The translations under genes and the position numbers were made by a program. Source: Octopus sinensis (lineage: Eukaryota). Taken from it: DNA of 64,000 bases. Positions 7,298 to 59,884 of this stretch are shown here, piece after piece. Within the stretch, counting starts at the first letter, position 1; each line of letters starts with the position of its first letter. The notes beneath the pieces were generated by a model. The model was not told the origin of the DNA. It searched no databases and worked only from the letters and a program-made list of their open reading frames with translations. The stretch is from assembly GCF_006345805.1 (NCBI RefSeq), contig NC_042998.1:45446001-45510000 (forward strand), in the 5' to 3' direction.

Positions 7298-7771
7298 TGT
7301 TACATACATAGTTGTCTGAGAAGCCATGGCAAGAGAAATATGGACACTAGTATATTTGTCAATAGAGTGGGTATATTAATCAAAGTTAATTGTATAATAG
7401 ATCTATTTCAACTGATCCCACCAATTGGTTTCACACTGGATATTAAATAACTGCATTAAGGTATACCTGGCATCCCTGAAGGCAACATTTTGTTATCTAT
7501 TACTCTGTGCAAAACTGCTTGACAAAACCAACTAAAATATGGCTCTATGACACTTTCGGCTTTGATTACTCTATATATATATATAATGGTAAAATATCTA
7601 TTTACCTTCATCCATTTAGTACACTCGGTAATGTAATTGCAATGCAATAAAAAACACTTGTGTATTAATAATTGGGTATTCTACAAGCAGTATATTGGAT
7701 AGATATTATCCCTTAGTTGGTTGGATTTACAACCTCTAAGTTTCTTTGAATATAATATATATTAATTACTA

Positions 7772-13936: not shown

Positions 13937-13949
<13 letters not shown>

Positions 13950-13967
<18 letters not shown>

Positions 13968-14210
13968 GCGGAGGCACATGGCTTAGTGGTTAGAGCAGCA
14001 GACTCACAGTCGAGGGATCACAGGTTTGAATCTCAGATTGGGCGATGTGTGTGTTTATGAGCAAAACACCTAAGTTCTATACATACATACATATATATGC
14101 GGAGGCACATGGCTTAGTGGTTAGAGCAGCAGACTCACAGTCGAGGGATCACAGGTTTGAATCTCAGATTGGGCGATGTGTGTGTTTATGAGCAAAACAT
14201 CTAAGTTCTA
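13950..14210 (+). repeat. Tandem duplication (131-bp period) of a SINE head
   Basis: gcggaggcacatggcttagtggttagagc…taagttcta at 13968 and 14099, nearly identical. Confidence 0.9.
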
Positions 14211-14523
14211 TGCAGAAGGTAATGGCAAACTTCTGCTGACTCTTTTGCCACAACTTTCTCTCACTCTTTCCTCCTGCATCTTGCAGCTCATCTGCGATGG
14301 GCTGGCATCCCGTCCAGGTGGGGCACCTATATGCCAAGGAAACCAGCCCTTATGAGCCAGGCATGGCTCAAGAAGGAGCTAGCCGAAATTGCAAGGATGA
14401 TCCGGTTCTTGACTGAAGATTAGAGGCTTTGAATGACCCGTCCATTTTCGTATCATCTATTTGAATGTTTTGCATTCTTGTCCCATTTTGTATTTTTATA
14501 TATATTTTTTATACATATATATA

Positions 14524-16577: not shown

Positions 16578-16989
16578 TTTTGTGATGGCCTGTAGGACTA
16601 TGATGAAAAGGAAAGGGCTGAGTACTGAATTTAAATGGGCCCCTACTTACATGCTAATTTCATTGTAGAAATCCTTTATTGCATTTTTGTGATGGCCTGT
16701 AAGACTGTGATGAAAAGGAAAGGGCTGAGTACTGAACTTAAATGGGCCCCTACTTGCATGCTAATTTCATTGTAGAAATCCTTTATTGCATTTTTGTGAT
16801 GGCCTGTAGGACTGTGATGAAAAGGAAAGGGCTGAGTACTGAACTTAAATGGGCCCCTACTTACATGCTAATTTCATTGTAGAAATCCTTTATTGCATTT
16901 TTGTGATGGCCTGTAGGACTGTGATGAAAAGGAAAGGGCTGAGTACTGAATTTAAATGGGCCCCTACTTACATGCTAATTTCATTGTAG
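16578..16989. repeat. Minisatellite, 107-bp unit, ~3.8 copies
   Basis: gtgatggcctgt starts at 16582, 16689, 16796 and 16903. Confidence 0.95.
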
Positions 16990-31661: not shown

Positions 31662-31807
31662 CAAAGATAAACCATTACCAAAACTGCAAAACCCAGATAC
31701 CCATGGACTTTAAATGAGCGGACACATACTTGATAGAGAATGCAGGCCAAAGGCAGAGGAGTGAAGCCCATTCGCCGAGATAAGAGATCAGAATGATCTG
31801 TGAAAGC
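31662..31807 (-). CDS. TAPT1: TAPT1 homolog, coding exon
   Basis: 146 bp; attatag|GCT … TG|gtaagt. Translates AFTDHSDLLSRRMGFTPLPLACILYQVCVRSFKVHGYLGFAVLVMVYL, containing the conserved RRMGF.PLPLA motif. Confidence 0.95.
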
Positions 31808-31957: not shown

Positions 31958-33019
31958 CCTATCTGCTGTAGGCACAAAGCCCGAAGTTTTAGTGGAGGAG
32001 GCTAGTTGATAACATCGACCCCAGTATTCAACTGGTACTTATTTCATTGACTCTGAAAACTTGAAATGCAAAGTTGACCTCAGTGGAGTTTGAACTCATA
32101 ATGTAACGATTGATGAAATCCCATTAATAATATTAAAACGCTAAATTTTTGTTTTTGTACATATCTGTTGTGTACATCACACTTCAAAGAAGTGTATGTA
32201 TCTGTTGTGTGCATCACACATATCTGTTCTGTGCATCTGTTGTACATATCTGTTGTGTGCATCACACTTCAAAGAAGTGGCAAAGTGATAGAGAGGAGGA
32301 CAGAGAGGAAGAGAGAGAGAGAGAGAGAGTGAGTGAGTGAGTGAGAGAGAAAAAAGATAGTGAAAGCGTTCATTTTGTGTTTTTAAATGTTTCAGAGGAG
32401 GTAAGAGAGAAAGATAGAGAGTGAGAGAGAGAGAAAAAGTGAGAGAGAAACAGAGAGAGTGAAAGAGACAGTGAGTGGTGATGGCGTTCATTTTGTGTTT
32501 TTAAATGTTTATTAAATCGCAAGAGAAGTAGACACATAGATACATACACACATTGTTAAATCAAAAGCAGGAGAGAAGAGGGACACAAAGGAAGTGAAAG
32601 AGAAAGAGGGAAAGTGAGAGAGACAGTAGATACATAAAGCCAAAGAAAATTTCATACATAGATACATACACACAACAAATATTGGATGTCAATTTCACTT
32701 TTCATTACCACACGAGGATAAAATTAACTTATAAATGGCTGAGTACGCCACAGATATGCATAACATTAATGTAGTTCTCAGGGAGATTCAGCCTCACACA
32801 ATATGACAAGGCTTTGAATTACAGCTACAACTTGAAACATATATTTATATATACAAAATGAGAAAATGGAGAAACATACCTAAATCAATCATCAACCATC
32901 AGATAATACCCACTCAATACTTTATTAGACCATTACACAACAGCAATGACATTATACATAATATATTACAAATATAACTAGACATGGAAATAGAAACAGA
33001 AAATACAATTACATTGTAG

Positions 33020-33128
33020 CTGACAGCTGTTTCGGCCATGAAGACAGGTATGTCCCATTTAACCTATTAGCCATATAAAGCAGGTATAAATGAGACATTA
33101 ACAAGAATGTCTCACGGCCTCTTCAGAG
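33020..33128 (-). ncRNA. Hammerhead ribozyme motif (left arm; sense to TAPT1 pre-mRNA)
   Basis: Reverse-complement copy: CTGAAGA-GGCCGTGA…TCATGGCC-GAAA-CAGCTG-TC. The stem II substitution converts a G-C pair to a tolerated G.U pair. Confidence 0.6.
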
Positions 33129-35283
33129 AATTTAATGTAAGTATGAAAAAAATTTACATATAAATAAATAAATATATAAATATAAAAATGTGTGCATAGA
33201 CACTCATAATTCTACACATATATATATACACAATAATACATTATAAACAATATATATCAATATACATTAACAAACACAATAATGTTCCATATTGAACTCA
33301 TAGTTCTATATCCAACATCAAGGAAATACATGAACACTCATATTTAGATTTAAAGCAGGCATATATATTTAACAGTCCAGTCTATTAAAATGTATAACCA
33401 CACAAAAAGTCAATAAAATTAATATTAATATTAATAATAATAATAATAACCATGATTGTACCATGTAAAGCAAGCGGACATCCACATATATACTTAATAA
33501 GTCGAATTCATCTGTCTGCTTGGTATTGATTTACATAGATAGATTCGATTGGCTTATAGATTTAAATTTGAATCACAATGGAAATTTTACGGTTAGTTAG
33601 CCAAGAAACACACATACGCACACGCACATCCATACATAGTTATATGTATACACACACACACACACACCCACACACAGACATAGCCACATACACAGCCAAA
33701 TCATAAATAAATAAATAAATAATATAAGATGTAGAATCGCAACTTTACACATGCAAAACAGAGAAACCCAACCGATTGCACATACATGCATGCAGACAGA
33801 CAGACATCAAGCCACCCCAAACGACACCATGGCTGTTGTATTAACTAAGTAGATCCACTCACATATTTCCATAAACAGTAAATGCAAACATACATATAAT
33901 TATATCCAGATAGAGAATGTAATTTTTCATAAGGTACATAATTCATATGACACCGTATTTTTCGTAAACATAGTATTTTATAACTAAAAAGTCCGCAAAT
34001 TTAACCGCTATGCTTTATTCAAACAATCGCTAATTTATAAAGTATAGAATACCCATTTCTGTTTGACTATCAAGAGACATAAAAAAATATATATACTAAG
34101 TTAACAACGGTTTATAATAATTAAATTATAAGAGATTAATTGTAAGAAGTCAAAATACGCTAATATTCTAAGATATATAATCACAATAACTCCTTATAGC
34201 ATAAACAGATATCATCCCTACGTAATAAATCCAATGTTATTACAATACTAATATTTTTCTATTTAAACCCTCACCGCGAACTAATAGAATTACACTCACA
34301 TCTACATGTCCATATGTATACTCATGTGTAACAACAGACATGCACATACACACCATATATTTTCACATATGATGTGCGTGTAAACATTCGTAGTACTTAT
34401 ATATATATATATATATATTTTTAAGCAACAGTGGACACATAAATACATATATAATAATTAACAGGATTTAGCATTAAATAATATCAGTGGAGGACTTACC
34501 AATAAATAGTATATAAGTAAATAACAAAAATTAAATTAATTATAAGTTAATAATTGTAATTACTTAAAATTAAAATGTAATAAGATAAAATTAGATGAAA
34601 TAATTAAAATTAAAATGAAAATATAAGTAAAAGCTTGTATACATATATATATATTATTATAATAAATAATGGATATGTATGTATATATCTACATATAAAT
34701 AAATAAATGAATAAATAAATAGATAAATACCATAGAAAACAAATTAAGATAAATACAAAGGTACACCTAATATATAGTACTGCTAATATGTATATATCCA
34801 CATATGCATAAATGAATAGATAGATAGATAAATAACATAAAATAAAATGAAAATATACATTGAAAAGAGTATATATATAAACTTAGTATACAGGCTACTA
34901 TTATGTAAATATTTACTATATATGTGGATGTCCGCTTGCTTTACATGGTACAATCATGGTTGTTATTATTATTATTATTATTATTAATATTAATTTTATT
35001 GACTTTTCGTGTGGTTATACATTTTAATAGACTGGACTGTTAAATATATATGCCTGCTTTAAATCTAAATATGAGTGTACATGTATTTCCTTGATGTTGG
35101 ATATAGAACGATGAGTTCAATATGGAACATTATTGTGTTTGTTAATGTATGTTGATATATATTGTTTATAATGTATTATTGTGTATATATATATGTGTAG
35201 AATTATGAGTGTCTATGCACACATTTTTATATTTATATATTTATTTATTTATATGTAAATTTTTTTCATACTTACATTAAATT

Positions 35284-35392
35284 CTCTGAAGAGGCCGTGA
35301 GACATTCTTGTTAATGTCTCGTTTATACCTGCTTTATATGGCTAATAGGTTAAATGGGACATACCTGTCTTCACGGCCGAAACAGCTGTCAG
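35284..35392 (+). ncRNA. Hammerhead ribozyme motif with long stem II insertion (right arm)
   Basis: CTGAAGA (35286-92); stem II GGCCGTGA(35293-300)/TCACGGCC(35371-78); GAAA (35379-82); C-AGCT-G palindromic stem III; GTC ends at 35390. Proximal stem I is only CT/AG. Confidence 0.6.
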
Positions 35393-35754
35393 CTACAACG
35401 TAATTGTATTTTCTGTTTCTATTTCTATGTCTAGTTATATTTGTAATATATTATGTATAATGTCATTGCTGTTGTGTAATGGTTTAATAAAGTATTGATT
35501 GGGTATTATCTGATGGTTGATGATTGATTTAGGTATGTTTCTCCATTTTCTCATTTTGTATTATTAATTTACGGTAATAATTTTACCCTTGCCCACATAA
35601 TACAGTAGATGAATTAATTGCATCGCAATTTTTAACATTTATGTATTAGTTTTGTTGGGTACCTCTCTAGCAGTATATTGGATATATGTTATCCCATGGA
35701 GGGTTGAATTTACAACCCTATCTCATTTTATAATATATATATATATATATATAT

Positions 35755-41860: not shown

Positions 41861-41920
41861 CTGTGTCTGACGACTTGATACCATATCTTGGGCCAAAATA
41901 AGAGAGAAATCTGCATAAAC
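41861..41920 (-). CDS. TAPT1: TAPT1 homolog, coding exon
   Basis: 60 bp; tttttttag|GTT … CAG|gtaagc. Translates VYADFSLILAQDMVSSRQTQ, in phase with both neighbours. Confidence 0.9.
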
Positions 41921-50617: not shown

Positions 50618-50717
50618 NNNNNNNNNNNNNNNNNNNNNNNNNNNNNNNNNNNNNNNNNNNNNNNNNNNNNNNNNNNNNNNNNNNNNNNNNNNNNNNNNNN
50701 NNNNNNNNNNNNNNNNN
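50618..50717. other. Assembly gap (100 N) next to a ~200-bp (TA)n tract
   Basis: Run of n followed by (TA)n at 50718-50922. Confidence 1.
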
Positions 50718-57268: not shown

Positions 57269-59884
57269 ATTGCAGGCATGACTGTGTGGTCAAGAAGATT
57301 ACTTCCCAAACATGTGGTCTTGGGTTCAGTCCCTGTGCGTGGCAACTCGAACAAGTGATGGTAATGTGACAAGCTTTTTTTCTTTCTAAATCTCCACCTA
57401 CCAAATCCACTTGCAAGGCTTTGGTTGGACTGAAACTATAGAAGACATTTGTCCAAGGTGTCATGTAGTAGGACTGAACTTGAAACTATGGGAAACAAAC
57501 TTTTTAACCATACAGCGATGTTTGCACTTTCAGTGTCAATAATATGTTCCAGTCATGTCACATATTATAACAGATAATGACACTGAAAACCTGTGCTACA
57601 AATTAAAATTTTGTGAGTGAAATTCAATGCAAAAGTGTATGTATCATCATCATTATTTCACATCCACCTTCTATGGTGGAATGGGTTGGACAGTTTGACA
57701 GGATCTGGTTTCTATGACTGGAAGCTCTTCCTAAGCATCAACCACTTTACAAAATGTATTTACACTATTTGTCTACAGAGAGGAATTTTCTCCATGACAA
57801 GACACATTGAATAGTTTTAGTACAGGTTTACAGGTTTGAATATGCCTGAAGCATATTTGAACTGGTAATAACCTATTTATATATATCACTGCTTACACTG
57901 TCTCACCCAATACTTTACAGAGCATACTGAGTGCAAGAGAAAGAAAAAGCTCCCTCAGTTGAATGAGATTGCAGTAGAGAGGGTTGTGGCTTTATGACAA
58001 GTGTTGAGAGGCAAAAGTATAATAGAGGGACAGGAAGAGGTGTTTTGTTATAGATGAGATATGGCTACTCTGCATTATATAAAGGCAGATGCAAGTGGTT
58101 GGAAAGAGAGACAAAGACAGGTGGTAAAGAGGTATCAGGGTGTAGTATCAAGGTACAAGAAGATGAGTATAAGAGAGAAGACAGACATAGGATTGTGAAG
58201 TGTAGGTTGGTAAGTTAGTAAGAGTATCATAGAAGAGTGATAGGTGGTTAGAGTTGGCGGTAGAACTGAATGTAGTAAATGGTGAACAAGAATGGAGGAA
58301 TGGTCAATAATAGATATTAGTTTGAGGTGTAAGGTAAAAGAAATAGGGGTGTCTCAGGAAAAAGGTATTGTAGTGTGTGTGTATATGTGCTTGTGTGTGT
58401 GTGTGTGTGTGTGTGTATTGTTATTTTATAATAATTACTGGTATCCTTATATATTACTATATTTTATATGTAAAGCATAATATGTTATATGTTTGTATAT
58501 TATTGTAATTATCAGTTTAGTAAATAAATAAGTTAATATAATATAATGTCTAAAAGTTGATGAACTATCTATTGTTCTCCTCCATTTTCTTATTTGCTAT
58601 ATAAATTAATGGTAAAATATCTCTTCACCTTCACCCATTAATACACTAGGTAATGTAATTGCAATGCAATAAAGAACACTTGTGTATTAATAATTGGGTA
58701 TTCTACCAGCAGTATATTGGATAGATATTATCCCTTAGCAGGTTGGATTCACAACCTCTAACTTTCTTGGAGTTACATATATATATATATGTATATATAT
58801 TTCTCTTTCTCAGTTCTACAGCCTCCCCCCCTCCAACTATTAACACCTGCTGTCAAACCCAACAACAATGACCATCCTTCACAATACTACCCATTCTGCA
58901 CTTTCTCACTCACCTGCTGATTCTACTTCAACTTCTCTCAATGCCCTAATTACTCGCCCCTCTCTCTTCTTGCTCTGACTCTCTTATCTCTTCTTGCCCT
59001 TCCTTACTTCAACACTCCCCACATGCCCCTCAAGCCACCTACTTCCTTGCTCCGCTTACTTCTATTAGCTTTCCTCTTCACACATTTTACTTTTCAATTT
59101 CCCTGCATTATGATTTGAAATGTTAGGTACTTATGTCTCCACCCTGAAGACAGTGACTGGATTTAACTAATGTTTATATGCTTCCACTACTAGTTGTACG
59201 TCCATGACTTTTTGCGAACTGCACTCGTCAACATTATGGTGTAATTCCAAACCCCAAGAAACAGCTGTTGGATCTGTAATACCATACAAATTTTTTGTGT
59301 CTTTGTACTCTGTGTGAGCCTGTTCTGTTAATATATCGATATTGCTATATTTATACACACACACAAGATGGACTACTTTTAGTTTCTGTCAACCGAATCC
59401 ACTCACAATTCTTTGATCAGACTGGGCTATTGTAGAAGACATTTGCTCAAGGTGCCACACATTGGAACTGAACCAAGAACTATGTGGTTGGGAAACAAGC
59501 TTCTTACCACACAGCCAAACCTATACCCATAGCATGGAAAAATTTATGCAAAAACTTTTTTCATAAAACTAAAAATAAAAGTGAACCATCTTCAGATATT
59601 AAAAAGAAATTATTATTTAAAAATGAAAAGATTAATATTATATAAGAAATTCATTTTTAATTTTATCAAAATCAGTTTTTTTTTTGTTTTTATATTCAGT
59701 TTTTCCACTGTTAATAAAGAAGGATTTTGAAATTTTGAAAATTTGCATACAACTGGATCAATTATTTTCACAACAAAATTCTCTTGCTGTATAGGAGCTT
59801 ATTCCAGTTTTCCAGACGTTAAACACATAAGAAACACTTATTCCTCAAGACATATCAGTCTATAACAGGTTCTGCTCATGGTGG

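Follow-up and report, generated by a model that had tools for sequence, protein, structure and literature searches.

The closest described relatives of the octopus sequence analyzed here are Penelope-like elements (PLEs) of the Hydra clade, a group with a C-terminal endonuclease (EN+) that is defined by RWK and DKT motifs, a CxCX5C linker, the absence of CCHH, CxxC/CxH motifs, and (TA)n targets (Craig et al. 2021, PMC8557442). Published Hydra units measure at most 3.05 kb, helix II of the Hydra hammerhead motifs spans at most 24 nt (File S2), and the tails of published elements are 30-40 nt long; a type I hammerhead lies near the 3' end, and in Penelope-13_HM of Hydra an inverted, 5'-truncated copy places hammerheads on both strands. 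Another described element, Hydra-1_Obim, is a separate family of 2507 bp, with a 7-bp stem II and different core flanks. In Poseidon of Anolis carolinensis (Frangieh et al. 2024, PMC11167929), both strands of an AT-rich target are nicked and extended, and reverse transcription (RT) starts at two fixed internal sites bracketing a short intra-ORF tail that derives from the beginning of the next unit; reportedly, no reads ended where the hammerhead cuts, and cleavage was not needed in vitro. Metazoan PLE hammerheads are minimal, dimeric motifs with a palindromic, weak helix III, a helix II of 6-8 bp, and a short helix I (2 bp in D. virilis), of which a single copy is inactive in vitro (Cervera and de la Pena 2014, PMC4209133), and dimer dependence with inactive monomers is likewise described for palindromic weak-helix-III hammerheads in PMC7229834. 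Opposite-strand hammerhead pairs 100-700 bp apart have already been reported for Schistosoma (PMC4209133). Penelope elements of Adineta vaga show head-to-head inverted pLTRs, a tail at one end, junction palindromes, and asparagine-rich ORF inserts; they belong to the Penelope/Poseidon type, and their tails are 31 bp long and their pLTRs short (Arkhipova et al. 2013, PMC3846280). Inverted copies with a tail on one side have already been published (PMC8557442, PMC3846280).

The family represented in the window (the whole 64,000-nt stretch of Octopus sinensis DNA under analysis) has the protein marks of the Hydra clade, the (TA)n target, the type I hammerhead near the 3' end, and the arrangement of Penelope-13_HM. 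It resembles Poseidon in its two fixed internal RT starts with a tail between them, in the use of both strands of an AT-rich target, and in a tail taken from the start of the next unit; it resembles the metazoan PLE hammerheads in helices I and III, and the Adineta vaga elements in the head-to-head inverted pLTR, the one-end tail, the junction palindromes, and the asparagine-rich inserts. In contrast to these systems, the unit measures 5.6 kb, helix II is a bulged rod of 86 nt, and the structured tail of ~172 nt belongs to a 5' UTR and ends ~150 nt before the start codon; the protein has 947 aa, with asparagine-rich inserts. Unlike in Poseidon, the 5' ends of the window lineage pile up 3' of the predicted cut. 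The insertion layout is already known, and the differences of the window family are quantitative, residing in unit length, helix II, and tail. Our literature search, outside which most subscription papers lay, found no paper on the window family, on long-helix octopus hammerheads, or on twin priming by PLEs.

Table 1. Features of the insertion and of its host intron, in window coordinates.
Feature	Position	Strand	Remark
Left arm	32851..33492	-	last 642 nt of the element body
Right arm	34917..35561	+	shorter inverted copy of the same element 3' end, 645 nt
Element body, 5'-truncated, non-coding (3' UTR + pLTR)	32851..34916	-	genomic copies at 87-94% over the full length
Stretch originally called a spacer; upstream portion of the element 3' UTR	33493..34916	-	genomic copies
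Hammerhead, type I, sense in the TAPT1 pre-mRNA	33003..33138	-	core from 33126, predicted cut after 33022
Second hammerhead, antisense in the TAPT1 pre-mRNA	35274..35409	+	core from 35286, predicted cut after 35390
Head-to-head junction	34905..34920		12-nt palindrome terminating the body at 34916
Tail, ~172 nt	35562..35733 (end approximate)	+	start of the next unit's 5' UTR; conserved stem + two hairpins
TAPT1 exon downstream of the insertion	31662..31807	-	PF05346 21.3 bits, weak, below cut-off; splice sites and frame from sequence
Predicted TAPT1 exon upstream of the insertion	41861..41920	-	inferred from splice signals and translation

The original prediction described two near-identical inverted arms, each with a hammerhead core, and a tail on the right arm common to other loci, and all three parts held. 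Alignment showed that the arms differ by 11 substitutions and one 3-nt indel, with a longest perfect run of 169 nt, and they rank first in both length and similarity among the 1053 inverted pairs of the window. The hammerhead region returned 1306 first-look candidates in the genome, the 40 that were scored being 95-100% identical over most of the query, and the tail returned 1528. The 1,424 nt between the arms, which had been called a spacer, turned out to belong to the element: the part at 33760-34380 returned 153 first-look candidates, 40/40 scored copies matched it at 84-100% identity, and in other copies the stretch is contiguous with the left arm. The element is therefore read in the minus-strand direction, from 34916 to 32851; its 2.07-kb body ends in the left arm and faces an inverted end copy that measures 0.82 kb with its tail. 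The junction between them offers a few nucleotides of possible microhomology. Both the short 3' end of the body and the end of the tail adjoin a TA run, in which no target-site duplication is readable at the insertion. Two young tandem repeats lie elsewhere in the window, one with a 107-nt unit repeated 3.9 times at 97% (16578-16989) and the other with a 131-nt unit repeated twice at 99% (13948-14211).

Longer copies of the family (L031, L111, L113, L129) continue upstream into RT and GIY-YIG frames. The closest fetched copy by arm identity (L111; 96.0 and 95.5%) retains a 537-codon RT frame, and two members of a sister subfamily (L156 and L157), ~77% identical over hammerhead and tail, carry unbroken 960-codon frames (947 aa from the first Met) flanked by direct pLTR hammerheads 5.6 kb apart, to which L157 adds a third, inverted hammerhead. 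Pfam and PDB sequence searches recognized neither the RT nor the endonuclease; for a homolog at 41% identity (P0003), a structural model with a pLDDT of 80.8 had telomerase RTs as its two best fold matches. The endonuclease was called from aligned motifs, and the RT and endonuclease traits were read in family members, the window copy being non-coding. The RW(K/R) motif is RW(R) in L111, L122, and L156 and RWK in L118 and L119, all five have DKT instead of DKG, the CxCX5C linker is present, CCHH is absent, and CxxC and CxH surround the conserved E and N. TA runs adjoin nearly all of 48 distinct short ends, and the terminal tail ends as well. The copies also show the EN+ Penelope-like layout of partial-tandem pLTRs, an inverted 5'-truncated copy, a tail at one end, and a pLTR hammerhead; the size typical of Hydra elements (<3 kb) and their short-helix hammerhead, both usual rather than diagnostic traits, were not found, helix II measuring 85-86 nt. 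The Penelope-like origin proposed for the repeat is thus upheld, and the protein marks together with (TA)n insertion would narrow it to the Hydra clade, an assignment drawn from motifs rather than from a tree against published Hydra sequences. The locus is probably a 5'-truncated, non-coding Penelope-like copy with Hydra-clade marks, in which the body stands head to head with a tailed inverted copy and both arms likely arose in one insertion event from one RNA. A non-LTR retrozyme was rejected as a candidate, the locus having no tandem units and the body being part of a coding element.

Several features of related copies were recorded alongside. Two asparagine-rich ORF inserts, one after the RT thumb and one before the cysteine linker, occur in L156 (2249-5128), L122, and L031; they are missing or shorter in homologs and recall the inserts of the Adineta vaga Penelopes. 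The genome also holds many Hydra-like copies (L159-L166 and more) at ~50% protein identity, with unbroken frames of 856-1124 codons. In one further Hydra-like family the tails of 37/40 scored copies are fully identical, so that this family is probably very young. The near-full-length L111 (G000:C24:22669500-22679400) has a same-strand C2H2 zinc-finger frame of 535 codons ~1.3 kb away.

Both hammerheads have the conserved core boxes, helices II and III, and the NUH cut site of type I motifs. Helix II comprises 8 basal pairs plus 70 nt. In helix I, an internal loop separates the 2 proximal bp from a distal AU-rich helix, and helix III consists of 2 bp capped with a palindromic loop. In the 21 copies compared, helix II keeps 97% of its cells paired, and 5 pairs have changed on both sides; helix II spans 31, 55-60, and 100 nt in other Hydra-like families of the genome. 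Rfam at its gathering thresholds gave no match for the hammerheads. Long-helix motifs of this kind escape both Rfam and short-stem descriptors and are therefore probably undercounted. A third hammerhead-like pattern occurs in the window at 59144, and in one subfamily (L095, L101, L104, L119-L121, L139) C replaces U at core position 4, with a helix II of 100 nt in all of these copies except L095.

Helix III is a perfect 8-nt palindrome that is different in each of four lineages, as would be required of a dimer; it is non-palindromic in the L162 hammerhead family and an imperfect palindrome in L161. Folded as a monomer, the motif forms its helix III pairs with a predicted probability below 1%, and a pattern scan of the window found no second hammerhead of the same sense. 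By this modeling, the lone sense hammerhead would be weak as a monomer and probably needs a second same-sense copy. The ribozyme probably serves the element itself, cutting as a dimer where one transcript contains two same-sense pLTRs at a distance of 5.6 kb.

Copies of the family stop at either of two fixed 3' ends, ~172 nt apart. In L114, L118, and L122, all full-length, the tail is continuous with a 5' UTR, the start codon lying ~150 nt further on, which identifies the tail as the start of the next unit. Its predicted fold, a long stem with two hairpins, comprises 39 pairs over 16 copies with 98% of cells paired, and five pairs have changed on both sides (slid controls, 35-43%), a count of doubly changed pairs reached by 95/500 shuffles; the 3' 96 nt alone folds no better than shuffled sequence (z -0.65). 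Support for the tail structure is moderate, since it comes from covariation among related copies, which relatedness can inflate. Elsewhere in the window, at 58545-58775 and ~7590-7745 (+), solo tail-type insertions of a sister family lie between TA runs; that family returned 2354 first-look candidates, has the same two fixed ends, and shows inverted partners in several copies.

The two ends are combined in a strictly polar manner. Typing of 73 distinct sites yielded 23 inverted pairs, one direct tandem, 33 sites with the short end alone, and 16 with the tail alone, 4 of the last lying within full-length copies. Every inverted pair with both ends called (23/23) joined a short end to a tail, short/short and tail/tail pairs numbering 0 each; a single insertion may be represented twice among the 23, as two of them are identical, and the flanks covered 1.5-5 kb, so that distant partners can be missed. 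Re-analysis with new loci, in an overlapping set, gave 24/24, and the counts were 20/20 and 18/18 in two further Hydra-like families (C and D), whose tails measure ~155 and ~120 nt. Searches anchored in the tail were able to show tail/tail pairs, and those anchored in the hammerhead, the body, or the short end were able to show short/short pairs. The paired 5' ends lay at most 20 nt apart in 9/19, 11/20, and 8/18 pairs, vs 5.2, 2.4, and 1.4 by shuffling; from these counts five pairs of set A+B beyond the reach of the panel were dropped, and three pairs of family D share nearly one junction. Junction positions vary between copies, whereas the 3' ends are fixed. In the window the 5' ends of the arms differ by 1.4 kb, so this junction is not position-matched, and four substitutions found in both arms occur rarely or not at all among 64 other aligned copies.

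The strict polarity, the matched 5' ends, and the shared rare substitutions favor two primings on a single RNA. The element endonuclease would nick both strands of the TA target, cDNA synthesis on a single RNA would be primed at its short site by one strand and at its tail site by the other, and both cDNAs would stop, often at the same place, and then be joined. We infer that this account has slightly better than an even chance of being correct. The nicking and extension of both target strands and the paired internal starts of Anolis Poseidon (PMC11167929) offer a published parallel for the first two steps. The polarity could also come from two RNAs held on an asymmetric protein dimer, or from fold-back with template switching, and the private substitutions common to both arms could stem from later gene conversion.

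The most serious competitor, proposed by Arkhipova et al. (2013), holds that the inverted arm arises by fold-back, a palindrome priming synthesis on the first cDNA itself or on an antisense template, after which the endonuclease resolves the hairpin at the short site. The 12-nt palindrome that terminates the body at the window junction is what this mechanism predicts, matched 5' ends fit it as well, as do the junction peaks at palindromes in families C and D, and palindromes have been reported at inverted junctions (PMC3846280). Fold-back along a tailed first strand, however, cannot yield a short arm extending upstream beyond its tailed partner, and precisely this was seen in the window (by 1.4 kb) and in 4/24, 1/20, and 9/18 of the pairs (14/62 pairs), with ends in set A+B that lay beyond the panel's reach censored. 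Moreover, judged by eye, most of the junctions compared looked blunt or overlapped by a few nucleotides and had no obvious palindrome. We therefore regard fold-back as an unlikely source of the inverted arm, though one deserving to be taken seriously.

In the lineage of the window copy, arm 5' ends fell within the 36 nt just 3' of the predicted hammerhead cut in 30/93 arms at risk vs 25/439 in eight other bins (Fisher p 2.5e-11, with arms of one pair not being independent), and the excess was present in each of three samples and in solo arms (11/53). The samples were picked without regard to the hammerhead, and the 36-nt bin width was set after the first data had been seen. AT content was discarded as a cause, a neighboring and more AT-rich bin holding only 1/94. 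Family C placed 8/46 5' ends in the cut-adjacent bin, with a larger peak at a palindrome; family D placed 2/46 there and likewise peaked at a palindrome, with short arms that begin in that bin falling below the detectable length. Structure prediction gave nothing consistently stable in the pile-up zone, in which the window's subfamily has a 6-bp AU-rich hairpin. The pile-up fits reverse transcriptase running off cleaved RNA, with trimming, a tenable explanation that nevertheless falls short of being probable. Taken together, and more tentatively still, the copies of the family might be a fossil record of one RNA primed twice on either side of a 172-nt structured tail, with about a third of the cDNAs stopping at the hammerhead-cleaved 5' end.

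The host gene is TAPT1, which lies on the minus strand (PF05346 match), and the insertion sits inside a 10-kb intron between the two exons listed in Table 1, 1,044 nt from the acceptor. The pre-mRNA geometry that had been predicted is correct: the left-arm ribozyme is in the sense orientation, its antisense copy is transcribed first, and the next exon is ~1 kb away. The intron contains 9 sense AATAAA signals, 4 of them within the insertion, which might lead to premature polyadenylation, and the TAPT1 transcription unit holds 15 other inverted pairs of at least 100 nt. A 100-N assembly gap occupies 50618-50717, in another TAPT1 intron. A second DUF747 gene, 29-65% identical to the window's TAPT1 exons, was found on another contig (L123; G000:C9532:109780-110517), where it is open over 297 codons with TAA/TAG read as Gln; this contig is likely a contaminant, perhaps from a dicyemid-like parasite or a ciliate.

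It had further been proposed that in the TAPT1 pre-mRNA the arm duplex could mask the ribozyme and recruit ADAR close to the next exon; on a regulatory reading of this idea, the pair would have been kept or co-opted to act on TAPT1. Beyond the geometry, this idea draws on thermodynamics, the arm duplex being predicted at -270 kcal/mol over the ribozyme region against -42 kcal/mol for the ribozyme fold, and on the finding that ADAR in animals mainly targets young repeats (PMC9989829). However, the family has produced the same short-plus-tail layout at many unrelated sites, and the arms drift independently, each having acquired some five derived changes, including one in helix II of the sense ribozyme, with no sign of constraint. 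The monomer is also predicted to form helix III only rarely. Masking is probably moot, as the palindrome implies dimer dependence. We consequently find a regulatory role for TAPT1 very improbable, and the proposed function was not upheld. The 640-bp duplex in the TAPT1 pre-mRNA is probably a by-product of the insertion, which would, by these folding estimates, sequester the ribozyme. By analogy with other young inverted repeats, its editing is plausible and would be ordinary. Lastly, that the inversion is an assembly artefact, or the whole a MITE-like DNA transposon with 640-bp terminal repeats, is scarcely credible: inverted PLE structures do trouble short-read assembly (PMC8557442), and public sequencing reads at the locus yielded short contigs dominated by other repeat copies, none in the runs examined spanning it, but 12 differences separate the arms, each arm has derived alleles not shared by the other, the tail is on one arm only, and among copies the junctions shift but the 3' ends do not, and the body continues into an RT gene.

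As a locus, this is an ordinary intronic insertion. As a family, these copies bear on the origin of PLE inverted junctions and one-sided tails, and on whether PLE hammerheads cut in vivo. The published in vitro assay can be applied to them directly, since natural copies with unbroken frames exist, the two start sites are sharply mapped, and the tail is long and structured. If the fossil-record reading is true, the family would provide in vivo evidence that PLE hammerheads, here with an 86-nt helix II, cut the transposition template.
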